64,000 bases of DNA from assembly GCA_030390025.1 (NCBI GenBank), contig CM059431.1:127722001-127786000 (forward strand). The letters run 5' to 3'. The position numbers were made by a program, and so were the translations under genes. The notes beneath the pieces are model-generated. The model saw only the letters and a list, made by a program, of their open reading frames with translations. It searched no databases and was not told the DNA's origin. Positions 11,596-45,667 of this stretch are shown here, one piece after another (positions within the stretch are counted from its first letter, which is position 1; each line of letters opens with the position of its first letter). This stretch comes from Squalus acanthias. Lineage: Eukaryota.

Positions 11596-11935
11596 AATAT
11601 AACTTTAGATATTGAGAAAAAGCAAATCTTAACTTTGCTCTGTACCAGATGAGTTATATTATTAAGTTGTAATCAGGAGAAAAGATAACTTATCCAGCAC
11701 TAGTGCTTAAGTATTTTGATGTGGGAAGTTTACATAACAATGAACCTAGTCATGTTTATGGCACAACCAGGTCAATTATTACCACTTTAACTCAATTGGC
11801 TGAAACACTGGCCTGTTTATTAGCTGGACAAAGGCTTTTATTGGATATTATTCCCCGGCCCCCTGCGACCCCCCCAATATTCAAAATGGATGTTGGGACA
11901 AATAAGGTTGAGGGAAACAGGTAAGTATTAAAATT

Positions 11936-12738
11936 CGCCCGGCACCTTCCCGTGCAAGCGCAGGAGATGCAACACATGCCCTTATACCTCCCCTCTTCCC
12001 ACTGTCCAGGGCCCCAAACACCCCTTCCAGGTGAAACAGTGATTTACTTGTACTCCTGCCAATTTAGTATACTGTATTCGCTGCTCACGATGTGGTCTCC
12101 TCGACATTGGGGAGACCAAACGCAGATTGGGTGACCGCTTTGCGGAACACCTCCGTTTAGTCCGTAAGGGGGACCCCGAGCTCCCGGTCGCCTGTCACTT
12201 TAATTCACCGCTCCACTCCCACTCTAACCTCACCGTCCTCGGCCTATTACACTGTTCCACGGAAGCTCAGCGTATGCTCGAGGAACAGCACCTCATCTTT
12301 CGTTTAGGCACCCTACAGCCCTCTGGACTCAACATCGAGTTCAACAATTTTAGATCATAACCCCTGCCCCCATCACATTTATATTTTATTTTTTCATCCA
12401 CCCTTTTGTTTGGCCCCCCTTTTTTTTTCCCTCCCAGAAGCTGGCAGCTGTCCTTCATTCTGCCAGTGCATTTCACACTTCTTTTAGCCTCAACCTGTTA
12501 CATCAACACCTCCTCTTGCCTTGATTATCTCTTAATGTCTCTCAATGTCTCTTAATCTCTCCTTTTGTTCTTTCATCCCCTCCCCCTTTTCCCAGCTTTA
12601 TACTTGCTTTAAATTTATTTCATTTCCTGCTTTCTTCCAGTTCTGACAAAAGGTCTTCGACCTGAAACATTAACTCTGTTTCTCTCTCCACGGATGCTGC
12701 CTGGCCTGCTGAGTTTTTCCAGCATTTTCTGTTGTTAT
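11936..12738 (+). mobile_element. 5'-truncated Penelope-like element (GIY-YIG end plus pLTR tail)
   Basis: Encodes NLVYCIRCSRCGLLDIGETKRRLGDRFAEH...LIFRLGTLQPSGLN; 14-bp TSD TAAGTATTAA(A/T)ATT at 11922-11935 and 12739-12752. Confidence 0.85.
12639..12675 (+). ncRNA. Degenerate minimal type I hammerhead ribozyme motif
   Basis: AGTT-CTGACAA-A-AGGTC-TTC-GACCT-GAA-ACAT-T-AACT; stems I and II pair; core and stem III carry CpG-type decay. Confidence 0.55.
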
Positions 12739-13158
12739 TAAGTATTAATATTGCTGTTTGGAAAAAATAGAAAAGCTAAAGTAGATTATATTAGATGGCA
12801 AAAATTAATAGTAGATTTAAACTAATACTATTACTGGGGAAGGAGAGAAAATGAGAGCAAATAGAAGACAGGGTAAGCTGAAGTGTGGGCCGTGATTTTA
12901 ACATCGGCGGCGGGTTGGAGTCGGGTCGGCTGTTCGGCGGGTTCCGGTCCCACTGCCGGTTTCAGCCGCTCTGAATTAACAATTTTCCCTTAACTGGGCT
13001 GATTAAGCCGGTTGTGCGCGTTGCCCGGCCCAATCAGTGGGTTCAGGTCTGCTGCTCGCCTCTGCTGACGTCTTCCATCCAGCTGCATTTAAGGGGCCCA
13101 TGCCGCCTTGTGGTTTTTCATTCCTATTCTGATGCTTCTCGGTGTGGCACATAGCGAA

Positions 13159-15010
13159 ATGACTGCTTCAAGACCAAAGGCCTCACCAAGATTCGATGAT
13201 GACTCCCTCCATGCTCTTGTGGAGGGAGTGAGAGGGCACCAAGAGGTACTGTTCCCCTCAATGGACGGAGGAAGCTTCCTCAGCAAACCAAAGCAGCCTG
13301 GCTGCAAATTGCTCCAGGTCTTTGTGTGCTCGCTCCTGGGTTCAGTGCAGGAAAAGGTTCAATGACCTGCTACGCTCAGCAAAAATGAGTATAACATCAC
13401 ACTTGCCTTCAATCTGCTCCCCATCTCCTCTCATCACCAGCACTCTGCATTGTCAACCTACTCCTGCACATCCCACTTTACCCTTACATCCCTTGCACCC
13501 TTAACCATCCCTCTCTCCCTATGTACAGAATCACTTCACCATTCTACTATGCACCCCTCACACTCGCTATCACTGTTATGCAGTGACAACAACTAACAAT
13601 GCACAGGGAGGGCCCTTGGTATTGACACCTCACTCCATCTTTGTCTCCCTCTAAGCATCTATGCTATGGATTCTCTACACTCACTCCAACATTCTCACTC
13701 AAACTCCACTTGTGTCCCTCATTGCAGGAAAAGAGAGCCCACAATAAGAGGCAGAGGGGCAGGACAGGAGGAGGGCCACCTTCCATGGGGCACTTGACCA
13801 CCGCTGAGGAGGCTGCTCTCGACATCATCGGAGGTGCTGAGGAGCTGGAAGTGGGGGATGGAGAGACGGGCGCAGTAGAGCAAGCTGGTGACAGGATAGA
13901 TTTGCAGCCCTCTCATTTACATTGCATGAGTGACTGATATGGCATCTGATGATCATACAAATTGAGTTCTGATCATCTGCAAATGTCGATGTGTCTGCTA
14001 TGTTAATATCACATGTCTAACTCATGCCTTTACTCCACCACAGGACCATCGAGAGCGCCCCTCCCCACTGTCCAGGAGGAAGAGCCGGAAGGCTCCTCAG
14101 AGGATGCTGCAACCTCTGAGGGAGCAGCGTTAGCAGAATTGAGCGCACCGCGGTGGATCATTCATAAGATAGATTAGTGTTGTCACCTGGTGTATCACAG
14201 CTCACAAGTGAGCATCAGCAGATGGTGGAGACAGGGACAGCAGTGGAGAGTCCTCGTCGGAGGCTGCAGGACGCTCCCAGCTCTGCTCAGCTGCATGTGG
14301 ACCCTGTGCCTCTGGGGCCATCCAGAAAGAGAGCAGTGCTGGAACTTCAGGAACAAGTGCAGGAGTCTCTGACAGAGTTTGCAACCACTGTAACTGCGAG
14401 TGTGCAGAGAATGGAGGCGTTCATCTCAAACATGAGCAATGCCGTGGTGCACGCAATGGCGAATGTAGTTGCCGCCATGGAAAGGATGGCAACCTCCATG
14501 GAGGACATAAATCGCCAGAAGCAAATGAACATGGTGACTCTTCTAAATAGATGGTTTGCTATGGAGGATAGATAGACATCTATTGAAAAGAGGAATCAGA
14601 GGTACATGGACGTCCCCGTTATGAGGACTGTCAGTACAGAGATGGGTCCTCATGGCCCCACTGATGTGCAGCAAGGTGCTCTCCAGCTACTTGCTAGCAG
14701 TGAAGTGCGGGCAACCCATGAGAGGGATGTTGGTGGTCGACAACAAGGAAGTGTCGGCTCCTCTCCAAGCGCTCACACTCCCATGCCACTGCGGAGCCCT
14801 CAGTCAGAGCCCCAGATTCCTCACCCAACCGAGATGGCCATCTCAGCCCCTGCACAGCCACAGGAGGAGCAGACTGTTGCGGAGCCCTCCCAGGCTCCAA
14901 AACCCAGAGGACGCCCGCCAAAGGTATCGAAGCAGGAGCAGCATGAAAGTGAGCAAGGTGCCTCAACATCTGCTAAAGCCATAGGGGAAGCACCACGTAG
15001 AGAAAGTTAA
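13159..15010 (+). pseudogene. Harbinger Myb/SANT-like DNA-binding protein gene, 3 exons (approx. 13159-13384, 13728-13887, 14044-15010), disrupted
   Basis: PRFDDDSLHALVEGV...RSWVQCRKRFNDL and EKRAHNKRQRGRTGGG motifs; acceptors TTGCAG and CCACAG; donor GTGACA; first donor mutated to ATGAGT; frameshifts and stops. Confidence 0.8.
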
Positions 15011-15307
15011 CACACAAATAGTCATAAGGGTAGTCCCTTGGGTGTTTTGATGTAATACAAAGTAAAGATTATCATCGTTATTTCAATTGTAATAAAGAAA
15101 TGCGATGGCAAAGATTCAAAGACTTAGCCTATGTGTGCCCAGAAATGGAAGTGTCACAGTGAGGGGTCAGGGCACCTTTCATCTGTAATGATGGTGGTGA
15201 GAGTGATAGGAACACACAGTTTATTGTATAGATGCTGTATGGTGTGTTAAGAAGGTCAGCCAGACACTCATTTCCATGTGGCAGCCACATGTGTTTGCTT
15301 CATAAAC

Positions 15308-16530
15308 TTAAGCGAATCTGGCATGGATTAGTGCATCCCTTGTCTCACGGCCAGCAATGTGCTCGCGTGCAAGTGGAACTGGCACATTCGCCTCCACAAG
15401 GTCTTCCTCTTCCTCCTCCTCCTCCTCTGAGGAGGAGGAGGCTGTGCACTGAGCCACTTGTTCCTCAGGCAGCGGTAAGCCACGCTGCTGTGCGATGTTG
15501 TGCAGTGCACAGCAGACCACGATGATTCTGGAGACCCTGGCTGGTGAGTACTGTAGGGCTCCACCAGATCTGTCGAGGCATCTGAATTGCATTTTGAGCA
15601 GGCCGATGGTTTGCTCTAAGATGCCTCTAGTGGAAATGTGGCTCACATTTTAGCGCTCCTCAGCTTCGTTTGATGGCCTCCTCATCGGTGTCATTAGCCA
15701 CGTCTTCAGGGGATAGCCCTAGTCTCCAAGTAGCCATCCCGAAAGTTGGGTTGGCGGATTGAAGAGCTGAGGCACAGTAGACTGCCGCAGGATGAACGAG
15801 TCTTGGCAACTGCCAGGGAACTTGGCGCAAACATGCATAATGTTCTTCCTGTGGTTACACATCAGCTGGACGTTAACGGAGTGGAAGCCCTTGCGGTTGA
15901 CAAATACAGCTGGGTTGTGATGGGGTGCCCTAATAGCCACATGTGTGCAGTCTACGACACCCTGCACCCTTGACAAGCCTGCTATATTTGCAAAGCCAAC
16001 CGCACGCGCGGTTACACTTGCTTCATCCGTGGAGAAGTGAATGTAATTGTGCGACTTTGCAAAGAGGTCATCGGTAACCTGATGCAAGTGTGTGTGGCCG
16101 ACTGGGTGATGCCGCTGATGTCTGCTGATGATCCTTGGAAGGACCCTGAAGCAAAGAAGTTGAGTGCATTGGTGACTTTGACAGCCACTGGTAAGGAGTG
16201 TCCACCCGCTCCTCTGGGCTCCAGGTGTTGGTGCAGCATTGCGCAGATGTCAGCAACTACCTCTCGCGAAAGTCTCAGCCTCCTTTGGCACTGCTGCTCA
16301 GTCATGTTGAGGAAGGTCATCCTCGGCCTGTAAACCCTGTGTTGGGGGTATCTCCTGCAGCAAGGTGCAGCCCTGCACTGACGCCCTCTGCCCTGTGCAG
16401 CATCAGGTGGCTGAGGAGAAGGTTGGCGCTCCTGCTGTTGTTGCTGCTGTTGTGCCTGGTTCTGCTGCTGCCGCGGCTGCTCTTCCTCCAATTCTAAGGA
16501 CCAGGATGAGAGGGTATAAATGGTTCCCAT
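15308..16530 (-). pseudogene. Harbinger (HARBI1-like, DDE_Tnp_4) transposase, frameshifted
   Basis: [55 protein letters not shown] split over three frames. Confidence 0.9.
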
Positions 16531-18874
16531 TCTGCTGCTATATATCTCAGTTGAGGAATAGATGTTATAAGCGCTCAGTTAATGTGGGGAGAGGGTTTTC
16601 CAAGGAGGTCACCGTGCATATGGATCTCAGCTTAAACACTTACAAGCTCAATAGACCTGCAAAATATGTTCCAACACCTCAAAACACAAAGTTCTGCCAT
16701 CTGAAAGTCAGCCATGTTACAGGTCCGCTTTTATGCTGCACGTGCAGTTGTTAAGAATTCAGGTAGTTGCTGAACCCGGCACAATCAGCTGGCGTGATTG
16801 GCTTCCGATGTGGAACACGCTGAAAACGTAGTAAAATGGGTAGAGCCTGGTAAAATGGGATTATGTAGTCAGTTAACAAGCTGTTAACTGCCTTGAGTGC
16901 CTCTCCCGCCGTTTGGTGTCGGGTCTGATCGGGACTCGCAGACCCGACATTTTGTAAAGTTGCGTGGAGGCGGGATGGCGGCGGGTTCACAACCCGCCAT
17001 CAATCATTTAGATTTTCACTCCTGACCCGCCTTCAAACCCGCCCTCTGAGCGCCGGCAAAATTGTGGCCATAGTGTCTTTTTTTAACTTTTATTTCACTT
17101 TTTTAGGAGGCATAGGCTTAATATTTGGCAATAACGCTACTCCCTGCATTTCCTTTATTACTATAGTATTAATGTGTGTACCAGCATCATGCCATAACAG
17201 CTAAAAGCTCTTTAAAAAAATATATGGTCAAAACTGGACACCAGGAATTTCCCTGGACATACAATGTTAAGACAATTTTAAAAATAGGATAGTATACATG
17301 CATTAGATTCCCCTATGTGGAGTTGCCCTTTTAATATAAATTTCAAAGTTGCACAGTTAGTAGTTAAACAGCTCTCTGTTACCGCCTGCCAATTTCCCAG
17401 CATGAGCAAAGCTAGCATTATTCATAGCTATGGGTTATGGGGTCAAACAAATGTCATTAAAATGAAAGGCAGCCCTAAGATTTAATATAATTATTGGTCT
17501 CTTATCTGTATGGATATGCTTTGAAATATTCTCTGCATGATATTAAACATTTCAAATCAGAATCTTAATTACAGAATAAGAACATTGAGTTTTTAATCTT
17601 AGATGTTCCTCCTGGAGTGCTCAAGGCAACATTATTAGAACATAATTGCACATTAATATAATATTCCCATTCATTGAGGTGGGCGACAGCTATCATTTAT
17701 TCTATACATTATGAATCATTTCTGTTTACAAGAAAAGTTCTTATCTGCACACATACATTTGCATCAGGCACATATACAGTATTTTGCAAGTTTAAAGGTA
17801 TTTCATCAGTGATTTAGTTAAATCCGAAACTAGGGTCTTAAATCTAAACAGAGCAAACTATGTAGGTATGAGGGGTGAATTAGCTAAGGTAGATTGGGAA
17901 ACTACATTAAAAGGTATGACAGTAGACAAGTAATGACTAACATTTAAAGAAATAATACCTAATTTACAACAAATATACATTCCTTTAAGGCACAAAAACC
18001 CCACAGGAAAAGTGGTCCAACCGTGGCTAACAAGAGAAGTTAAGGATACTATTAGATCAAAGGAAGAGGATTATAATGTTGCCAAGAAGAGTAGTAAGCC
18101 TGAGGATGGGGTGGATTTTAGAATTCAGCAAAGGAGGACCAAGAAATTGATAAAGAAAGGGAAAATAGAATATGAGAACAAACTAGCGAGAGACATAAAA
18201 ACAGACTGTAAAAGCTTCTATAGCTATATAAAAAGGAAATGATTAGCAAAAGTAAATGTGGGTCCCTTACAGGCTGAGACAGGAGAAATTATAATGTGGA
18301 ATAAGGAAATCGCAGAGAAATTAAACAAATACTTTGGCCGCGATTTTGTCGGCCCTCAGAGGGCGGATTTGGAGGCAGGTCCACAGTTAAAATCTAAATG
18401 ATTGATGGTGGTTTGCTAACCCGCTGCCATCCCACCTCCATGCAACTTTACAAAGTGTCAGGTCTGCGACTTCCAATCAGACCCGACACCAAGCGACAGG
18501 AGAGCCACTTAAGGCAGTTAACAGCTTGTTAAATGCCTGGATAATCCTATTTTGAGAGGCTCTTCCCATTTTGCAACATTCTCAGCGTGTTGCACGTCAT
18601 GCGACAAACACGCCAGCTGATTGTGCCGGGTTCAGCAACGAGCTGAATTCTTGACAGGTGCACCTGCAGCATAAAAGCTGACCTGTAACATGGCTGACTT
18701 TCAGATGCCAGAACTTTGTGTTTTGAGGTTTTGGAACACATTTTGCAGGTGTATAGAGCTTGTAAGTGTTTAAGCTGAGATCCATATGCACTGTGACCTC
18801 CTTGGAAAACCCTCTCCCCACATTGACTGAGCGCTTATAACATCTATTCCTCAACTGAGATATATACCAGCAGA

Positions 18875-20102
18875 ATGGGAACCATTTATACCCTCTCATC
18901 CTGGTCCTCAGAATCGGAGGAAGAGCAGCCACGACAGCAGCAGAACCAGGCACAACAGCAGCAGCAACAACAGGAACGCCAACCTTCTCCTCAGCCACCT
19001 GATGCTGCACAGGGCAGAGGGTGTCAGTGCAGGGCTGCACCTCGCCGCAGGAGATACCCCCAACACAGGGTTTAGAGACAGAGGATGTGCTTCCTCAGCA
19101 TGAGTGAGCAGCAGTGCCAAAGGAGGCTGAAACTTTCGCCAGAGGGAGTCGCTGACATCTGCACAATGCTGCACCAACACCTGGAGCCCAGAGGAGCGGG
19201 TGGACACTCCTTACCAGTGGCTGTCAAAGTCACCACTGCACTCAACTTCTTTGCTTCAGGATCCTTCCAGGGATCATCAGCAGACATCAGCAGCATCCCC
19301 CAGTCAGCCGCACACAGTTGCATCACGCAGATTACCAATGCCTTCTTTGCCAAGTCGCACAATTACATCCACTTCTCCATGGATGAAGCAAGTGTTACTG
19401 CGCTGCCAGTTGTGTTTGCAAATATGGCAGGCTTCCCAAGGGTGCAGGGCGTCGTAGACTGCACACATGTGGCCATTAGGGCACCCCATCACAACCCAGC
19501 TGTATTTGTCAACCGCAAGTGCTTCCACTCTCTTAACGTCCAGCTGGTGTGTAACCACAGGAAGAACATTATGCATGTTTGCGCCAAGTTCCCTGGCAGT
19601 TACCATGACTCGTTCATCCTGCGGCAGTCTACTGTGCCTCAGCTGTTCAATCCGCCAACCCAACTTTCGGGATGGCTACTTGGAGACAATAGATATCCCC
19701 TGAAGACCGATGAGGAGGCCATCAAATGAAGCTGAGGTGCCCTACAATGTGAGCCACATTTCCACCAGAAACATCATAGAGTGAACCATCAGCTTGCTGA
19801 AAATGTACTTCAGATGCCTGGACAGATCTGGTGGAGCCCTTCAGGACGCACCAGCCAGGGTCTCCAGAATCATCGTGGTCTGCTGTGCCCTGCACAACAT
19901 CGCACAGCAGCGTGGCTTACCGTTGCCTGAGGAACGAGTGGCTCAGCGCACAGCCTCCTCAGAAGAGGGGGAGGACAAGGAGGAGAAGGATGCGGCAGAT
20001 GAGGAAGAACTTTAGGAGGCGAATGTGCCAGTTCCACCAGCACGCGAGCTCATTGCTGGCCGTGAGGCAAGGGATACACTAATCCATGCCAGCTTTGCGT
20101 AA
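18875..20102 (+). pseudogene. Harbinger (HARBI1-like) transposase, disrupted
   Basis: ORFs 18875-19075, 19085-19729 and 19794-20015 carry [36 protein letters not shown]; in-frame stops and a deletion. Confidence 0.9.
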
Positions 20103-20388
20103 GTTTACGCAGCAAACACATGTAGCTGGCACATGGAGATGAGTGTCTGCCCGACCTTCTTAACACACCATACAGCATCTGTACAATAAACTATGGTTTC
20201 CTATTACTCTCCCCATCATCATTACAGATGAAATGTGCCCTGACTCCTCACTGTGCATCTTCCATTTCTGAACACACATAGGTCAACTCTGTCAATCTTT
20301 GACATCCAATTTCTTTAATACAATTAAAATAACAATGAGAAACATAACTTTGTATTAAATCCAAACACCCAAGTGATTACCTTTGTGA

Positions 20389-22278
20389 TTATTTGTGTGT
20401 TAACTTTCTCTTACGCGTGCTTCTACATGGTGCTTCTCCTGTGGCTTCAGCAGATGTAGAGGCACCTTGCTCACTTCTATGCTGCACCTGCTTAGATGCG
20501 TTTGGCGGGCATCCTCTGGGTTTGGGAGCCTGGGAGGGCCCCGCAACAGTCTGCTCCTCCTGCATCTGTGCAGGGGCTGAGATGGCCATCTCGGTTGGGT
20601 GAGGAATCTGCAGCTCAGACTGAGGGCTCCGCAGTGGCATGGGAGTGAGAGCGCTTGGAGAGGAGCCCACAGTTGTTGTTGACCACCAACATCCCTCTCA
20701 TGGGTCGCCCGCACTTCACTGCTAGCAAGTAGCTGGAGAGCACCTTGCTGCACATCAGTGGGGCCATGAGGACCCGTCTCTGTACTGACAGTCCTCATAA
20801 CAAGGATGTCCATGAACCTCTGGTGTCTCTCCTCAAATAGATGTCCATCTCTCATCCATAGCAGACAATCTATTTTGAAGAGTGACCATGTTTTCGTTAG
20901 TCTGGCGAATTATGTCCTCCATGGCGGTTGCCACCCTCTCCATGGCAGAATGTTCATGCGCCATTGCCTCCACAAAGGCAGTGCTCATGTTAGAGATGGA
21001 CTCCTCCATTCTCTCCACACTCGCAGTTACCCTGGATGCAAAATCTGCCAGAGACTCCTGCAATTGTTCCTGGAGTTCCAGCACCGCTCTCTTTCTGAAT
21101 GGCCCCAGAGGCACAGCGTCCACATGCAGCTGAGCAGAGCTGGGAGCATCCTACGGCCTCCGATGAGGACTCTCCACTGCTGTCCCTGTCTCCACCATCT
21201 GCTGATGCTCAGTTGTGACCTGTGATACACCAGGTGACAACACTAATCTATCTCGCGAATGACCCACTGAGGTGTGGTCTCTGTGTTGGTGCTGGGTACA
21301 CTCATTTCTGCTAACGCTGCTCCCTCAGAGGCTGCAGCTTCCTCTGAGGAGTCGTCTAGCTCGTCCTCCTGGACAGTGGGGAGGGGGGCTCTCGATATTC
21401 CTGTGGGGGAGTAAAGGCATTAGTTAGACATGTGATATTAACGTAGCAGGCACATCCCATTGTGCAGATGATCAGAAGTCAATCTGTATGAACATCAGAT
21501 GCCATATCAGTCACTCATGAAATCTAAATAAGAGAGTTGCAAATCTATTCTGTCACCAGCTTGCTCTACTGCGCCCGTCTCACCGTCCCCCACTTCCAGC
21601 TCCTCAGCACCTCCATAGATGTTGATAGCAGCCTCCTCAGCATTGGTTAAATGCGCAATTGAAGTTTGCCCTCCTCCTGTCCTCCCCCTCTCCCTCTTAT
21701 TGTGGGCTCTCTTCTCCTGCAATGAGGGAGACAAGTGAAGTTTAAGCGAGAATGTTGGAGTGAGTGTAGAGAATCCATAGCATAGATGCTTAGAGGGAGA
21801 CAAAGATGGAGTGAGGTGCCAATACCAAGGGCCCTCCCTGTACATTATTAGTTGTTGTCATTGCATAACAGTGATAGCGAGTGTGAGGGGTGCATAGTAG
21901 AATGGTAAAGTGATTCTTTACATAGAGGGAGAGAGATGGTTAAGGGTGCAAGGGATGTAAGGGTAAGTTGGGATGTGCAGGAGTAGGTTGACAATGCAGA
22001 GTGCTGGTGATGAGAATAGATGGGGAGCAGATTGAAGGTAAGTGTGATGTTATACTCACTTTTGCTGAGCGTAGCAGATCATTGAACCTTTTCCTACACT
22101 GAACCCAGGTGAATGAACACAAAGACCAGGCGCTCACCTTCTCAGCAATTTGCAGCCAGGCTGCTTTGGTTTGCTGAGGAGGCTTCCTCCGTCCATTGCA
22201 CCCACTTACTCCCTCCACAAGAGCATTGAGGGAGTCATCATCAAATTGGGGAGAAGCCTTGGCTCTTGCAGCAGTCAT
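20389..22278 (-). pseudogene. Harbinger Myb/SANT-like gene (3 exons), disrupted
   Basis: PQFDDDSLNALVEGV, AWLQIAEKV, TWVQCRKRFNDL followed by a GTGAGT donor; C-terminal RSTRKRK; homologous to 13159-15010. Confidence 0.8.
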
Positions 22279-24679
22279 CTCGCTAACAGTAACACTGAGA
22301 AGCAGCAGAAAGTGAATAAAACACAAAGGCTGCATGGAACCCTTAAATGCAGCTGAATCGAAGACGTCAGCAGAGGCGAGCAGCAGACCCGAACCTGATG
22401 ATTGGGCCGGGTAACGCGCATGGCGGGCTTAATCAGCCCAGTTAACTCAAAATCCTTAACGCAGTGCAGCTGAAACTGGCAGCGGGACTGAAACCCGCCG
22501 AGCAGTGAACCCAAAGCAAACCCGCCTACGAAGGCAAAATCACGGCCTTTGTGTCTGTCTTCATGGAAGAGATGCAAAAAACCTCCCGGAAATCGTGGAG
22601 AACCAAGGGTCTCGCAAGAATGAGGAACTGAAAGAAATTAGTATTAGAAAAAATAAATAGTACTGGAGAAATTAATGGGACGGAAAGCCGATAAATCCCC
22701 TGGTCCTGATGGCCTACAACCTCGGGTTTTGAAAGAGTTGGCTATGGACACAGTGGATGCATTGGTTGTCATCTTCCAAAATTCCATAGGTTCTAGAACA
22801 GTTCCCGTGGATTAGAAGGTAGCAAATGTAACCCCACTATTTAAGAAAGGAGGGAGAGAGAAAATGGGGAACTACAGACCAGTTAGCATGACATCAGTAG
22901 TAGGGAAAATGCTTGAATATATTACTAAGGACATGGTAACAGGACACTTAGAAAATAATAATAGGATTGTGCAGAGTCAACATGGATTTATGAAAGGGAA
23001 ATCATGTTTGACAAATCTGTTAGAGTTTTTGAGGTTGTAACTAGCAGAATAGATAAGGGGGAACCAGTGGATGTGGTGTATCTGGATTTTCAGAAGGCAT
23101 TCGATAAGGTGCCACACAAGAGGTTATTAAACAAAATTAGGGCTCATGGGATTGGGGGTAATATACTAGCATGGATTGAGGATTGGTTAACGGGCAGAAA
23201 AAAGAGTAGGAATAAACAGGTAATTTTTGTGTTGGCAGGCTGTAGTGGGGTACCGCAAAGATCAGTGCTTGGGCCTCAGCTATTCACAATCTATATCAAT
23301 GATTTGGATGAGGGGACCAAATGCAATATATCCAACTTTACTGACGATGCAAAGCTGGGTGGGAATGTAAGTTGTGAGGAGGATACAAAAAGGCTTCAAG
23401 GGGATATAGACAGGCTAAGTGAGTGGGCAAGAACATGGCAAATGGAATATAATATGGAGAAATGTGAAGTTATCCACTTTGGTAGGAAAAATAGAAAAGC
23501 AGAATATTTTTTAAATGGTGAGAGATTGGGAAATGTTGGTGTTCAGAGGGACCTGGGTGTCCTTGTATACGAATCACTGAAAGTTAGCATGCAGGTACAT
23601 CAATCAATTAGGAAAGCAAATGGTATGTTAGCCTTTATTACAAGAGGATTTGAGTATAAGATTAAAGACGTCTTACTGCAATTATATAGGGCCCTGGTGA
23701 GACCACACCTGGAATATTGTGTACAGTTTTGGTCTCCTTACCTAATGAAGGATATAGTTGCCATAGAGGGAGTGCAATGAAGGTTCACCAGACTGGTTCC
23801 TGGGATGGGGGTATTGTCCTATGAGGAGAGATTGAGTAGACTGGGCCTATATTCTCTAGAGTTTAGAAGAATGAGAGGTGATCTCATTGAAACATACAAA
23901 ATCCTTACCGGGCTTGACAGGGTAGATGCAGGGAGGATGTTTCCCCTGGCTGGGGAGCCTAGAACCAGGGGTCACAGTCTTAGAATAAGGGGTTGGCCAC
24001 GTAGGACTGAGATAAGGAGAAATTTCTTCACTCAGAGGGTGGTGAATCTTTGGAATTCTCTACCCCAGAGGGCTGTGGAGGCTCAGTTGTTGAGTATATT
24101 CAAGACAGAGATCGATAGATTTTTGGGTATTGAGGGAATCCAGGGATAGTGAAGGAAAGTGGAGTTGAGGTAGAAGATCAGCCATGATTTTATTGAATGG
24201 CAGAGCAGGCTCGATGGGCCAAATGGCCTACTTCTGCTCCTATTTCTTATGTTCTTAGTACATCGAGCAGATTGAAAAGTAATATTGTTGGAAACCCTAA
24301 TATTTTGTTCATGTTTAGTGCTGATCTGACACTACTCCTGCAACAAAGGAGTAAAAAAGACTTGTGAAAGCCTTGTTAAGCATCACTAATAATGCAGAAA
24401 CACATCAAAAAGCAAGTATTTGACTACAGGTTAATGAGTTTAACAAAGAGTGAGATTTTGAATTATCACCACAGTACTAATTGAAGTACAGAGGACTTTT
24501 TTTCTCCAAAGCCATCTTTGTAACAGCTATTAGTGGGTCTATTGCAGTGGAGCAGGAAAAGGAGAGAATAGCTATAGAATGCCAATGACATATGAGGGAC
24601 ATGAATCACAGCAGGTAATACCCTAGGAATTGAGCAGGTACACTATGACCCGGATATTTATGGGAAGGTGAGGTGTGAA

Positions 24680-24798: not shown

Positions 24799-26104
24799 CT
24801 GCTTTCCCCCTTCAAAAAAATGTACATATTCTCCTCTCAAATACAACAAAACTATGGTCCCACCTTTCCCAGCATTAATGTACCATATAACAAAGACTCC
24901 TGTCATTTTTTCTTTTAAATTAACTACAAATGCTACAAATGAACTACAAATCCAGTTTAATAATAGGTTTGTGGAGCCTTCCTGATCTCCTTACAAAAGG
25001 TTTTGGTGTTGAACCATTTTTCGGGCTGTTTTGTTCTGGTCCTGAACTCAAAGAAGTAGGTCCCATCACTCTGTTTCCCCACTTGATACTACCTTGCCCA
25101 CAAGACAATTCAGTACAACGGTTATGGAATGGTTTCAATTCTGTGTCCATACACTGATCAGTCCATCCAGTGAAGGTGTTTTCATACACTCTCTTCAGTA
25201 CTGAGTCCTTTCGTGCCTCATCTGCAATCTTAGTTGCATTCACGGGAAAGTCTTTGTCAACTGCACCTAGCATGAAAATCGCACCTTCACTCCCAACACA
25301 CAAGTCCTCATGTGGCAACCTGGACAAGGAATCTGTGATTGCTTTTGCTTTGAAGTGCGATATTCAATCGTGTAGTCATATTGTGACAACAACACTGCCC
25401 AATGTTGCATTCTTGATGCGACCATTGCAGGGATGGCAGATTTGGGCCCCAATATTGCAAGGAGCGGTTTGTGATTGGTTATCAGGGTAAACTTTCTGCC
25501 GATCAGGAACTGTTGGAATTTCTTGGCGAGTGCTTCCTTTTCAATTTGTGCGTAGTTTCTTTCACTCTTTGTGAGGGTTTGCAATGCGAATGCGATTGGT
25601 TTCTCTTGGCCGTCATTCATTACGTGACTTATGACAGCTCCCACATCATAGCTAGAAGCATCACACGCTAACTTAAGTTCACGCTCTGTGACGGAGTGCA
25701 CAAGTAGAACATCACTAGAGAGACTTCTCTTACAAGCATCGTAAGCTTCCTGTTGCGCTTTTGTCCACTTCCACTGGGCATCTATCTTGAGGAGCTCATG
25801 CAATGGAGCTCGTGCAATCATCGTCAACTGCTTGGTTGGTAGTAAATTTGTAGTCACTGCACAAGCGTACAGTTTTGTCTGCTTTGGGCACTACCACAAT
25901 CGGGGTAGCCCATTCACTTTTGCCAGTTTTTACTAGCACTCTGTTCTCTCTCAATTTCTCGAGCTCTTCCTCCACCTGACTTTTGAACACATAGGGGACC
26001 GGCCTTGCCTTACAATAGACAGGCTTTGCGTTGGACTTGATGCGGATATGCGCATCATACCCAGTGATGCCCTCATAACTGTCTGAGAACATTCTTTTAT
26101 ACTT

Positions 26105-26952
26105 CCACCTCCAACATGATCCCACCACCAAATGCATCTTCCCCTCACCTCCCCTTTCAGCATTCCGAAGGGACCGCTCCCTCCACGACACCCTGGTCCA
26201 CTCCTCAATCACCCCTAACAGCCCTTCCCCTTCGTCCGGCACCTTCCCGTGCAAGCGCAGGAGATGCAACACCTGCCCTTTTACCTCCTCCCTTCCCACT
26301 GTCCAGGGCCCCAAACACCCCATCCAGGTGAAACAGCGATTTACTTGTACTTCTTGCAATTTAGTATACTGTATTTGCTGCTCACGATACGGTCTCCTCT
26401 ACATTGGGGAGACCAAACACAGATTGGGCGACCGCTTTGCGGAACACCTCCGTTCAGTCCGTAAGGGTGACCCTGAGCTTCCGGTCACCTGTCAGTTTAA
26501 TTCTCCGCTTCACTCCCACTCTGATCTCTCTGTCCTCGGCTTCTTACATTGTTCTAATGAAGCTCAATGTAAGCTCGAGGAACAGCACCTCATCTTTCGA
26601 TCAGGCACTTTACAGCCTTCTGGAGTCAACATTGAGTTCAACAATCTCAGACTATAACCCCTGCCCCCATTCTTCAGGCTGTATGATTTTGCCATCCCCA
26701 TTTGCAACATTTTATCTTTCCTGCCTCCTACCTTAGCACAGAATATTCCCTCAGTTCCTTCCTCCCCTCCCTGCCTCTGCACCTGCTTAAAATCTGTTAC
26801 ATCTCCAGCTTTTTCCAGTTCCGATGAAGGGTCCCAGACCTGAAACGTTAACTCTGTTTCTCTCTCCACAGATGCTGCCTGGCCTGCTGAGTGTTTCCAG
26901 CATTTTCTGCTGTTATTTCAGATTTCCAGCATCCGCAGTATTTTGCTATTGT
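26105..26952 (+). mobile_element. 5'-truncated Penelope-like element nested in Gypsy pol
   Basis: AFRRDRSLHDTLVHS, GIY-YIG NLVYCICCSRYGLLYIGETKHRLGDRFAEH; same tail as 11936-12738; approximate TSD ATTCTTTT..TACTT. Confidence 0.85.
26817..26853 (+). ncRNA. Minimal type I hammerhead ribozyme motif (core variant CCGATGA)
   Basis: AGTT-CCGATGA-A-GGGTC-CCA-GACCT-GAA-ACGT-T-AACT: stem I AGTT/AACT, stem II, palindromic stem III ACGT. Confidence 0.6.
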
Positions 26953-27971
26953 ATTCTTTTCTACTTGTTCAACATTGTGTCGAGTTGCTTCTTTGAAGCA
27001 TCTACACTGAAGATGTTTTTCCAGTCTAGTTTTAACTTTCTCAACCAGTCTTTGCCCATGAGAGTTGGCCTGTTGTTGTAGCTCGCTACAATAATAGGCA
27101 GCTTTACTGACTGGCCATTGTGTTGAACTGTACATTCCATTTGTCCACATGTCTCTAGGATTTCCCCGGAGTAGGTTCTTAACTCTACGATACTCCTTGT
27201 AAGTGGTTTAAACTTACTATCATATGTGTCCTTACTCATGATAGAGCAGTCCGCCGCCGTGTCGATGCACATATCAATATATTGGTCATTGATCAAAAGT
27301 TTTATACAGAAGTCTTTCTCACGACTGCTAGCATTGCTGCGAGTGGCATAAATACTGTAGATGCCTAGTTCCTCAATGTCAGGTATGTTCACTTCAATAT
27401 TGTGAATTCCACCCTTTTGTTGTCGGTGCTTTGCATCGCCACTAGAATGGTTCTTACTTCCTGCTTTCAATCTAGCTCTGCAAGCTGTTGAAATATGGCC
27501 TTGCCTCTGGCAGCGAAAACACTTCGCATTTCTGTACTGTCAGGTCTGTGGTGAGTGATTTCCATTGCAATGATAACAATTCACTGAACTGCTGTCACAA
27601 ACATGCTTTTGACTTGGTCTCACAGCTTTAGGTTTGGCAGTGGCTTTGTGACTGTAGACCTCAGCTGCACTAGTCACTTGAGTTGGACGGAGCTCCCTTG
27701 CATTCCTAGATACCATCTCCATAGACAGGGCAATATTACATGCTATGTCAAAGGTTAGGTTCGGAGTGTTCAGTAACTTGGACTGTGTGCGCTCACCCAC
27801 CAGTCCACACATAAACTTATCTTGCAACGCATGATCCAAAAATGTGCTGAAGTTACAATGCAAAGACAGGTTCTTAAGAGCTACAATGAACTCACTGATG
27901 GTTTCACTTTGTTTTTAGTTTTTGGTACCATCTTATAGCTCTTTGCTTTTTCTAATGGCTTTGGGTCGAAA

Positions 27972-34152: not shown

Positions 34153-34397
34153 TGTAATATATGTGGGTAGAACAAATGAAGGACAGAGACAAGATGAATT
34201 GCGAGTCAAGGTGCTTGGGTCATCGACCTAAAATGTTAACTCTGTTTCTCTCTCCACAGATGCTGCCTGACCTGCTGAGTATTTCCAGCATTTTCTGTTT
34301 TTATTTTATGCTAATCAAGGTGCTTGTTTATGAGGCCAGAGCAAACTGAGCATGCTCATACTAAGCCATGTGACAAACCATGTGATAATATATTACA
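34153..34397 (-). repeat. Gypsy 5' LTR containing a 92-bp Penelope tail insertion (34217-34308)
   Basis: Homologous to 24680-24798 once the insert and one copy of the 17-bp duplication TGC(G/T)A(G/A)TCAAGGTGCTT are removed. Confidence 0.8.
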
Positions 34398-34402
34398 GTG
34401 AG

Positions 34403-35011
34403 TGGGGTGGCAGTTTTGTGGTCGGGAAACCTGGGAGAACGGGCTTCTCTCAGGTTCTGCCGCATTTAACAGCAGGACCTGATTACCATTTTTGAAATCC
34501 GTTTCCCAGCCCCAGCCAGATTGAGAGGCTAGCTGGCTGCCGCGCAGTTAAGCCTACGGCCGCAGGCTGCAGTCGGGGAGTGTAGACGAGGGAGGTAGAG
34601 ATTGGGGGTCCGGGGGGACATTGATGGGGGAGCCCGGAGAGATTGAGGGATGAGGGGACAAGATCGTGAAGGCGCCAGGAGAGCTCTTGCTCCTCCTGGC
34701 CCACATGCAGTACTGGAAAAGCACTTACCTGTTCCATGCAGCAGTCCTCTCCTCCCTTTAGCTGCTGGGTTTACCGAGGCCCAGAAAACCCAGCCGGTCA
34801 GCGTTAAAGCTGAAACAAAGAAACAATCTGAGGCACACAGCTGCACTTGAATATTTAAATGAGGGACCTGGGAGCTGGTTAGTTGCCTGCCCCCAGTCCC
34901 GCCTCGGTTAAAACCGGAAGTGGGCGGGATTGAGCCAGGTTTGAGATATTTAACATTATTATTTCCCACTAAACACAAACCCACCCATTTTTGGGGGTTA
35001 AAATTCCCAGC
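34403..35011. mobile_element. Harbinger-type MITE, probably the right part of an element whose left end is 24647-24679
   Basis: Ends GTTAAAATTCCCAGC; GC-rich body like the other MITEs; degenerate left TIR GACCCGGATATTTA just upstream of the Gypsy element. Confidence 0.45.
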
Positions 35012-35184
35012 TCTGTGTCGAATAGTGTGTGGCATAACAGATTAATAGCTTAATATGGGTAACAAAGCTTATAAGTTAACTTAGTAAAGATATCATGATG
35101 TGGAGATGCCGGCGTTGGACTGGGGTGGACAAAAATGAGAAGTCGCACAACACCAGGTTATAGTCCAACAGATTTATTTAATTT

Positions 35185-35221
35185 TACAAGCTTTCGGAGC
35201 GGTTTGCTCCTTCCTCAGGTA
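35185..35221 (-). ncRNA. Minimal type I hammerhead ribozyme motif (left arm)
   Basis: Exact reverse complement of 36514-36550. Confidence 0.7.
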
Positions 35222-36513
35222 GGGTAGCAGTGAGAGAATCTCCTAGAATTCACAATATAAACACAGACAAAATCTATTCAAATCTTTCCCTACATCAAAG
35301 ACACACTAAGAGCACAGCCAAGACAATGAGATGTGTCCCAGGGGGTCCAACGTGTCAAAACACCTGCTGGCTGCATATCCTGTCAATTTGTGTTGATTCT
35401 TGTGTTAGTCTTTTTTTAAAAAAAAACACCTGGAAAGACCGGCCATGATGTCAAGTCACGTTCTGTATCGTGACATGAACCCGATATCGCGATTGAGGCC
35501 ATCCTCATGAGTGCGGAACTTGGCTATCAGTTTCTGCTCTATGATTTTGCGCTGTCGTGTATCCCGAAGGCCGCCTTGGAGAACGCTTACCCGCAGATCC
35601 GAGGCTGAATGCCCCTGGCTGCTGAAGTGTTCCCCGACTGGGAGGCAACCCTCCTGCCTGGCGATTGTTGCGCGGTGTCCGTTCATACGTTGTCTCAGTG
35701 TCTGCATGGTCTCGCCGATGTACCATGCTCTGGAGCATCCTTTACTGCAACGTATCAGGTAGACAACGTTGGCCGAGTCACATGAGTATGTACCGTGTAC
35801 CTGGTGGGTAGTGTCCTCACGTGTGATGATGGTATCTGTGTCCATGATTTGGCATGTCTTGCAGAGGCAACCTCTGCAAGACATGCCAAATCATGGACAC
35901 ATACCATCATCACACGTGAGGACACTACCCACCAGGTACACGGTACATACTCATGTGACTCGGCCAACGTTGTCTACCTGATACGTTGCAGTAAAGGATG
36001 CTCCAGAGCATGGTACATCGGCGAGACCATGCAGACACTGAGACAACGTATGAACGGACACCGCGCAACAATCGCCAGGCAGGAGGGTTGCCTCCCAGTC
36101 GGGGAACACTTCAGCAGCCAGGGGCATTCAGCCTCGGATCTGCGGGTAAGCGTTCTCCAAGGCGGCCTTCGGGATACACGACAGCGCAAAATCATAGAGC
36201 AGAAACTGATAGCCAAGTTCCGCACTCATGAGGATGGCCTCAATCGCGATATCGGGTTCATGTCACGATACAGAACGTGACTTGACATCATGGCCGGTCT
36301 TTCCAGGTGTTTTTTTTTTAAAAAGACTAACACAAGAATCAACACAAATTGACAGGATATGCAGCCAGCAGGTGTTTTGACACGTTGGACCCCCTGGGAC
36401 ACATCTCATTGTCTTGGCTGTGCTCTTAGTGTGTCTTTGATGTAGGGAAAGATTTGAATAGATTTTGTCTGTGTTTATATTGTGAATTCTAGGAGATTCT
36501 CTCACTGCTACCC

Positions 36514-36550
36514 TACCTGAGGAAGGAGCAAACCGCTCCGAAAGCTTGTA
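36514..36550 (+). ncRNA. Minimal type I hammerhead ribozyme motif (right arm)
   Basis: TAC-CTGAGGA-A-GGAGC-AAACC-GCTCC-GAA-AGCT-T-GTA: intact CUGANGA/GAAA core, 5-bp stem II, palindromic stem III, stem I TAC/GTA. Confidence 0.7.
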
Positions 36551-36629
36551 AAATTAAATAAATCTGTTGGACTATAACCTGGTGTTGTGCGACTTCTCAT
36601 TTTAGTAAAGATATGGAGCAAGTGCTTTG

Positions 36630-37522
36630 GGGGTAGAAATTAGGTCGCGCCCCATTTGGGGCGCAAATATCGTCTGGACGCAAATATTAGCGCCTGGCGC
36701 TAATTATCGGCACTGACTGGAAACTTCACTTTTACCGCCCCGGGAGGTGAGTGGAGCGCTAAAGCAGGCGCTGCACACCTGTCTTAAGGCGCAAAGGCCG
36801 AGCAGTGAGGCGCTAACTCAGAGCGCTGGCGAAGCTCATGTAATGTCAGTCAGCAATGGAACACACACACAATGGCACGGGCCAGTTCTTAAAGGGGATG
36901 GTTAATCTTGCTTTCCATCTACATCCTATTCATTGCAGCCTTGAATCTCGGCCTGGAGAGACTTGCACATCAAATGTGCTGGAAAGAACAATGGAGAGTA
37001 CCAGGCCAAGAGCTCAGAGTGCAGCTCCCACAGTCTCTGCTAAATCGATACAAGGAATGGCAAATCAAAATGAACCTGCAAAGTGCTGCTCAGTACCCAA
37101 AACTCCTTCACACAACGTTGAATCTCTCCAGAAGTCTCTCCCTCTCTCTCTCAGAATGCGTAGTTCAAAAATGCCACCAACAATAAAAGACACGAAGAGG
37201 CCCCCTTTAAATAGCGCCCCCCCCAGCCCCACAGCGATTGATAGCGTTCCAGTCTTCTGGTCGTTGCTAGCGTCAGGCGGTAAGGCAGGGGGCGCCACTC
37301 AATTTCCGCTCTGGGGCGCCACAAGGGCGTTGCACCATGAAATGACGTCACAATCTGCGCGCGCAGGTGGTCGCAGCGGTAAGTTTTAGCGCCGCCGCAC
37401 AATGTCAAGTTAAGTTCCCGAGCGGCGCAAACATCGCTGCGCCCGGGCGTTAGCGGCTTTGCGCCCCATTAGCGCCCTCTTAAGGCGCTAACGGGAGGCG
37501 CAACCAACTGAATTTTTACCCC
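36630..37522. mobile_element. Non-autonomous Harbinger-type element
   Basis: TIRs GGGGTAGAAATT / AATTTTTACCCC; CpG-rich subterminal GCGC repeats at both ends. Confidence 0.7.
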
Positions 37523-44864: not shown

Positions 44865-45222
44865 CTTCCCTTACCCTTTCAGCATTCCAAGGGACCATTC
44901 CCTCCGCGACATCCCAGTCCACTCTATCATCACCTCCAACACCCGCTTCCCTTCCCATGGCACCTTCCCGTGCAAGCGCAGGAGATGTAACACCTGCCCT
45001 TTTACTTCCTCCCTTCACAACATCCATGTGCCGTATGCACTCCTTCCAGGTGAAACAGCGATTTACTTGAACTTCTTTCAATTTAGCATAGTGTATTCGC
45101 TGCTCACGATGCGGTCTCCTCTACATTAGGGAGATTAAACACAGATTGAGTGACCTGTTGAGTATTTCCAGCATTTTCTGTTTTGATTTCAGATTTCCGG
45201 CATCCGCAGTATTTTGCTTTTG
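44865..45222 (+). mobile_element. Internally deleted Penelope-like fragment
   Basis: Homologous to 26150-26430, joined directly to the tail GAGTATTTCCAGCATTTTCTG...GCATCCGCAGTATTTTGC. Confidence 0.8.
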
Positions 45223-45667
45223 TCTCCTGGTACAATGTCTTTGGTCAGTGGGAATGTGGATCGGTGTCTGTGTATGGGTTAGTGAGTCCTATTCATGGCA
45301 ATCCTGATTTTCTCCTCTAATCTCACAAAATTAACCTTTATAATCCAAGTACAATACCAATTGGATGTCAGTGTAGGACCTGGTATTTGCATAATTTCAA
45401 TTTCCAGTGGATCTTATAAACTTGCCAAGTCTTGAAATCTGAATAAATCGCAACATAAGTAAATCCTACTGAGTACAGAGGGATAAATACTGACATTTCA
45501 TTTCCAGGACTGAAGGTCAAACCAAACCAGAATGATGAGATGAAAATTTCCTCCACTTGTTCAATGTAATGATCCTGTATGAAATTAATTGCAATCTAGT
45601 TGCAATCTAGGGCTATATTTCCCAGTTCTAATGCTGAGGCACCTGGACTGGTGTACTGCAGACCATG

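Follow-up and report, generated by a model that had tools for sequence, protein, structure and literature searches.

Structure of the palindromic insertion

Two copies of the 3′ end of a Penelope-like element (PLE) lie head to head around a 3-base loop, enclosed by one target site duplication (TSD), within the 64-kb window, by which we mean the whole stretch of DNA analyzed here. The features of the insertion are these:

35081–35093, + strand: left TSD copy, 13 bp (35083–35093, 11 bp, if the shared TT is assigned to the element)
35094–35131, − strand: tail extension, on the left arm only, 38 nt (to 35133, 40 nt, with the 13-bp TSD)
35114–35169, − strand: terminal stem, by pairing of 35162–35169 with 35114–35121 (inside the tail)
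35132–35867, − strand: left arm, a 5′-truncated PLE 3′ end (part of the linker, endonuclease, 3′ UTR, hammerhead), by alignment
35185–35221, − strand: minimal type I hammerhead of the left arm, by strict descriptor
35456–35866, − strand: open 136-codon C-terminal fragment, with the second half of a CX4CxxC linker motif and a GIY-YIG-type endonuclease with CCHH residues
35866–35872, + strand: fold-back joint (GG, loop CAA, CC)
35868–35870: loop CAA
35871–36601 (to 36603 including the shared TT), + strand: right arm, an inverted tail-less copy, by alignment
35900/35901: 2-bp deletion in the right arm, shifting the frame
36514–36550, + strand: minimal type I hammerhead of the right arm, by strict descriptor
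36602–36614, + strand: right TSD copy, whose first 2 bases also match the T run of the element

The left arm (736 bp), reverse-complemented and aligned to the right arm (733 bp), differs from it by no substitution outside one homopolymer run, which is T9A7 in the left arm and T10A5 in the other. The right arm is without 2 bp present at left-arm positions 35835–35837, at a distance of 30 bp from the loop; it is the tailed (left) arm that has the in-frame version of this indel. The 2-bp deletion was not among the contig variants listed at a threshold of 2 in 100, and assembly error or mutation after insertion may account for both this indel and the difference in the homopolymer run. Outside the palindrome, we found no further copy of this PLE family in the 64-kb window, and a 22-base family motif had no match in the viral and metagenome contigs searched.

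The 13-bp direct repeat TTAGTAAAGATAT occurs at 35081–35093 and at 36602–36614, and a repeat of this kind at a fixed place would arise by chance with a probability of ~4e-8 (13 bases) or 6e-7 (11 bases). The TT at 36602–36603 fits both the TSD and the element, so that the tail measures 40 nt if the TSD is read as 13 bp and 38 nt if it is read as 11 bp. An earlier note on this DNA had described two ~735-bp arms around a CAA loop, a 2-bp indel near the center and a homopolymer slip, all of which the alignment recovers. The TSD that it placed around both arms and the tail that it placed on the left arm also stand; its combination of a 13-bp TSD with a 38-nt tail does not, given the shared TT. A perfect 12-bp palindrome, TAAGTTAACTTA, lies in the target at 35072–35083, where it adjoins and partly overlaps the left TSD copy, and may be there by chance.

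All 8 pairs of the terminal stem are Watson-Crick here, and 7 plus one G-U form in a relative, locus L001 (positions 1029–1088), in a comparison of two sequences only. The loop of this stem contains the position at which the tail-less arm stops. A second, overlapping pairing (35148–35156 with 35109–35117) could form a pseudoknot or an alternative stem. The family variants listed at 35131, 35134, 35135, and 35144 all fall between the paired strands of the terminal stem.

Identity of the element and comparison with known PLEs

Of 133 candidates in a search with the 136-codon fragment, 48 proteins matched; the top match, at 90% identity, is named from sharks. This best match (P0001, 90% identity over the fragment) carries a reverse transcriptase (RT) domain, as does a full-length relative (P0010); in both, the RT lies upstream of the endonuclease, and it is missing from the truncated palindromic copy. 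Because neither arm has an RT, the insertion is non-autonomous and dead. The protein alignment search confirmed one locus from 133 candidate stretches, namely L001, a 59% relative on a 1.36-kb contig. Pieces of the endonuclease region also occur in shark gene models that bear host-gene names (P0013, P0016, P0020, P0026, P0029, P0032, and P0043–P0048), and these may be read-through or exonized copies, or annotation errors.

The endonuclease reads VVYLIRC..C...WYIGET, followed downstream by R, H, H, E, and N, as in a GIY-YIG-like core with CCHH residues. The arm protein itself has no Pfam match; GIY-YIG is matched by three of the 14 alignment members, and between the fragment and a second PLE fragment in the window, one that does match GIY-YIG, identity is 34%. 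Profile searching of the PDB returned two matches, both with E above 0.2. Just upstream of the endonuclease, the homologues carry the linker motif C-H-G/S-N-L-C-K-T-C (CX4CxxC), inside which the insertion ends by 5′ truncation. A CX2-5CxxC linker upstream of the GIY-YIG core is described as the mark of Neptune and Nematis and as missing in Penelope/Poseidon (PMC8557442). The motif seen in the homologues thus identifies the arms as the 3′ end of a Neptune/Nematis-type PLE, an assignment that also agrees with those groups in the CCHH residues and in the RT upstream of the endonuclease, and that does not distinguish Neptune from Nematis (PMC8557442). Poseidon membership was considered and rejected, given the zinc-finger-like linker motif of the homologues.

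Head-to-head arms, a junction palindrome, a TSD and a one-sided tail are already described PLE anatomy (PMC3846280, PMC8557442). As in Pen2/Pen2a of Adineta vaga (PMC3846280) and in the scheme of Craig et al. 2021 (PMC8557442), an inverted 5′-truncated copy adjoins at the 5′ end; the joint palindrome, the single TSD and a 30–40-bp tail at one end are likewise common to Pen2/Pen2a, to the general EN+ PLE scheme and to this locus. TSDs in Pen2/Pen2a-type units measure 8–10 bp compared with 11–13 bp here, and the present insertion further differs from those units in that both arms are ~735 bp long, include part of the ORF and match in length to within 5 bases, without a third direct copy. PAc, the Poseidon of Anolis carolinensis (PMC11167929), shares with this locus a tail bounded by two end sites, an end site inside a stem-loop, a hammerhead in the terminal repeat and an AT-rich target (G+C of the 60-base flanks here is 23% left of the insertion and 48% right). 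Unlike the present element, PAc is without the linker motif, and the 5′-ATT-3′ that the anole enzyme prefers is absent from both inferred cuts here. Taken together, the locus is almost certainly one 5′-truncated insertion of an abundant shark-type EN+ PLE whose linker is of the Neptune/Nematis type, with its arms arranged head to head as usual. The earlier note had likewise read it as one PLE insertion event with the known inverted-copy and tail anatomy, and the arms, the single TSD and the one-sided tail support that reading.

A hammerhead motif in each arm

The strict type I descriptor matches twice in 64 kb, once per arm, against a mean of 0.03 in 30 shuffles, so the hammerhead noted earlier in each arm is real as a motif; Rfam at its gathering score gave no match within the 64-kb window. 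Both motifs have the CUGANGA and GAAA core, helix II, UH site and closing helix I that define a minimal type I hammerhead. In the right arm, the motif consists of a 3-bp stem I, a CUGAGGA core, an extra A, a 5-bp stem II and GAAA, with a palindromic AGCU in place of stem III and a predicted cut after 36547. In stem I, UAC/GUA here corresponds to CAC/GUG in L001, so that between these two sequences both sides have changed and the core is kept. Minimal hammerheads of metazoan PLEs are described as having an extra base after A9, a G10.1-C11.1 pair and a palindrome that replaces helix III (PMC4209133), and those of the palindrome show the same traits: an extra base between 9 and 10.1, G10.1-C11.1, and a palindrome for helix III. 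Compared with the minimal hammerheads of that report, among which opposite-strand pairs 100–700 bp apart were noted in Schistosoma (PMC4209133), stem I has only 3 bp and stem II 5 bp, and the two motifs lie ~1.3 kb apart on opposite strands. On shark PLE hammerheads, our literature search found nothing beyond one general review.

Because the two motifs are on opposite strands, they cannot dimerize within one transcript, and a read-through transcript of the palindrome holds one sense motif. For either strand of the full hairpin, forcing the hammerhead fold would cost 68.8 kcal/mol, compared with 2.6 kcal/mol in one arm. In vitro, cleavage was absent for a single minimal motif and weak for dimers (PMC4209133). 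Self-cleavage within the hairpin RNA, which the earlier note had proposed, is thus unlikely, since the motif would be buried by ~69 kcal/mol and the published single minimal motif is inactive.

Polarity of the central loop

Protein homology indicates to which arm the 3-base loop natively belongs. Among the 48 homologues, 22 match the linker-motif pattern; Asn precedes the LCK-type residues in 15 of these 22 and Cys in none. Reading across the loop gives G-N-L-C-K on the right arm, as in the homologues, compared with G-C-L-C-K on the left. Four contigs of sequencing run X9 diverge from the window at 35867, reading TTGCCGTGGCAG instead of CAACCTCTGCAA. Their first three letters correspond to the loop in inverted orientation; two matching letters follow, then three mismatches and three further matches. 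The homologue residues and these contigs together imply that the element natively contains the loop and the preceding GG in the orientation of the right arm. Judged by sequence, then, the loop is a continuation of the tail-less (right) arm, the native pairing beside it is the 2 bp GG/CC only, and the longer GAGGCAACCTC hairpin results from the inversion. A pre-existing fold-point hairpin of at least 4 bp was rejected, as GG/CC alone adjoins the loop, followed by three mismatches and then three pairs; the GAGGCAACCTC hairpin at which the earlier note had the element fold was therefore not there before the insertion, the native element pairing only GG/CC around the loop.

Evidence from family contigs

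Contigs of four of 20 listed sequencing runs were compared with 34400–35880. Run X1 gave 20,644 family contigs. At position 35396, both arms carry a letter that is rare among family contigs: the other letter makes up 119,602 of 119,721 in X1, 212,811 of 213,000 in X5, and all in X9 and X7, as summed contig depth, which is no copy number. That this rare letter is common to both arms points to one template lineage for the two.

Family contig pieces start at 35090–35096, and summed depth drops across 35094–35100. Among the loose ends listed for X5, 14 contigs end before 35126 and 37 before 35136, with mixed flanks. Other copies of the family thus terminate close to both of the start sites proposed below. 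Listed joints that link 35005/35008 to 35131/35136 have sides of 20–27 letters and unseen middles; we attribute these to other loci and rest little on them. No listed piece (32 of 39,452) or joint (15 of 42) bridges 35093/35094 or the loop, and no empty-site loose end appears among those rows or among the loose ends listed (24 of 914).

How the inverted copy may have arisen

The origin of PLE inverted copies is still called undefined (PMC8557442), and the later steps of insertion are described as unvalidated (PMC11167929). On balance, we consider it slightly more likely than not that both target ends primed cDNA here, at two known start sites, and that the tail-less cDNA folded back and was finished on the tailed cDNA. 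The endonuclease would cut the two strands 11–13 bases apart and leave two 3′ ends. The left end would prime cDNA at the distal start site (the tail end, 35094), and the right end at the proximal start site, in a U run (the equivalent of 35132–35134), where 2 target bases can pair. The tail-less cDNA would stop inside the linker motif, turn on the 2-bp GG/CC with a 3-base loop and extend as the sense strand, and this strand would finish on the tailed cDNA, because the tail exists on that cDNA alone. The switch could be immediate, if both cDNAs were long, or could come only near the end, if the second was short; fill-in of the other strand would then give a palindrome within one TSD.

This order of steps, with two primers and a template switch, is what we infer from the joints. 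The strand that crosses the loop natively starts at the right target end and is the antisense one in the tail-less (right) arm. A tail-less cDNA that copied itself would gain neither the tail nor the two frame-keeping bases, hence the second, tailed template. The fold-back reverse transcription proposed earlier accordingly keeps its fold-back step at the center and loses its plain one-cDNA form, the loop being native on the tail-less arm and the tail and in-frame indel lying on the other. In L1 twin priming, both target ends prime cDNA, the products are joined via short matches, and the non-overlapping 5′ part is inverted; here, by contrast, the same stretch is present twice.

Biochemical work on the anole PLE protein offers parallels: in vitro, it cuts and extends both target strands and is a predicted dimer, and it uses two adjacent start sites whose spacing equals the tail (PMC11167929). 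Its start sites did not differ between strands, it prefers ATT, and its template RNA spanned the pLTR-ORF junction, with both genomic ends tied to RT start sites (PMC11167929). Since that element is Poseidon-type and showed no strand difference in start sites, no fixed rule for which target end takes which site is predicted. The main text of that paper gives no model for inverted copies, and we found no two-primer model of PLE inversions there or in the literature covered, the scope of which did not include Evgen'ev and Arkhipova 2005 and Arkhipova 2006.

The published best reading of junction palindromes is that an antisense RNA folds at its 3′ end and primes sense cDNA, and that the hairpin is then trimmed on one side, so that the tail is lost from the RNA-derived arm, and integrated (Arkhipova et al. 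2013, PMC3846280). Under this reading the loop should lie on the arm derived from antisense RNA, in agreement with the polarity provided that the right arm is so derived, and the separate copying step for the RNA-derived arm permits the 2-bp deletion; the tail has been ascribed to endonuclease resolution (PMC8557442). The trimmed end must, however, coincide with many other tail-less ends of the family, and the anole template RNA and the correspondence of genomic ends to RT start sites (PMC11167929) also speak against it, so that we regard this route as unlikely here, though the strongest of the rivals. Somewhat less likely again is a single cDNA, primed at the tail end, that copies itself after folding back and is joined through TT to the other target end, 38–40 bases short. 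This would explain the equal arm lengths, the absence of substitutions and the TT match in few steps, but it predicts a loop native on the tailed arm; the loop is actually native on the tail-less arm, and a later inter-arm crossover flipping it would be required.

Other routes have far less in their favor. The family is so abundant in X1 that two independent insertions could be neighbors, and a single copy could later be duplicated in inverted form by a repair or replication switch. We nevertheless think either very improbable, as a single TSD surrounds the pair, the 5′ ends come together to within 5 bases, the rare variant is found in both arms, and the duplicated part terminates at a position where other copies of the family also end. 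Differences that consist of indels only resemble long-read consensus errors, and this, with the lack of a listed contig piece across the left junction or the center, is what an assembly or library fold-back artifact has to recommend it. A read fold-back, however, mirrors the flank too, whereas this unit has distinct flanks, is bounded by a TSD and carries a tail on one arm only, a combination unlike the product of such an event; the right end, moreover, falls on a family end site. An artifact is accordingly the least probable of all these explanations, if only slightly less so than separate insertions or duplication.

Priming from both target ends is thus the reading that we retain. It is drawn from one locus, with no second head-to-head copy found among the sequences searched, and a post-insertion crossover between the arms would invert both the loop and the 2-bp indel, erasing the polarity argument. 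More tentatively, and with somewhat less than an even chance of being right, we suggest that PLE head-to-head insertions normally arise when a dimer primes from both target ends, at the two start sites that delimit the tail, with a fold-back that needs no more than 2 bp and a handover of the tail-less cDNA to the tailed one, and that a conserved terminal stem around the proximal start site positions the primers.

The locus itself is one dead copy with textbook PLE anatomy, and its value is that of a clean specimen; the sole addition to the described layout is that the joints suggest that both cut target ends started a copy. Loop polarity can be counted in any shark assembly, by asking which arm of one-tailed copies bears the native spacer. 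A strong bias of the spacer would discriminate between twin priming, one-cDNA fold-back and antisense self-priming, and if head-to-head insertions do normally arise by priming from both ends, the spacer side in each young copy would record the order of strand synthesis.

Age and possible function

With no substitution in 733 sites, divergence between the arms is bounded at <0.41%. The earlier note had dated the insertion as very young. We reject this as a dating, since at the rate of 7e-10 per generation reported for the epaulette shark, another species (PMC10587355), the bound allows up to ~2.9 million generations. Youth is plausible, and conversion between the arms could also hide age.

Most likely, the palindrome has no present function. 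Were it read through, the transcript would be expected to form a 730-bp RNA duplex in which the ribozyme is inactive. A duplex precursor is not required for piRNAs. Cruciform extrusion, which the earlier note suggested for this DNA, can occur at long palindromes. In Drosophila, siRNAs match inverted-repeat regions of Penelope, and long inverted repeats are made by transposition (PMC3681739); since siRNAs have been reported for such repeats, the idea of a small-RNA source is not new. 

Other elements in the window

A second PLE family is represented by a fragment at 26079–26960, with a GIY-YIG match, inside an LTR-element-like stretch. It has a hammerhead at 26818 with the altered core CCGAUGA, and related pieces lie at 11934–12373, 12602–12739, and 44874–45223; no inverted partner was seen for these fragments within the 64-kb window. 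A short 3′-end copy of the same family at 34217–34306, with a direct repeat on both sides, is probably a small TSD-flanked insertion.

Similar 16-bp motifs flank the palindromic insertion at 34990–35005 and 36626–36641, and we take them to resemble the ends of Harbinger-type DNA transposons. At other loci among the family contigs, the PLE seemingly lies close behind such a Harbinger-like end as well. Elsewhere in the window, two 4.2-kb copies (12888–17089 and 18318–22547), 87% identical and inverted relative to each other, carry transposase-like and Myb-like frames and are presumably neighboring Harbinger-type elements.
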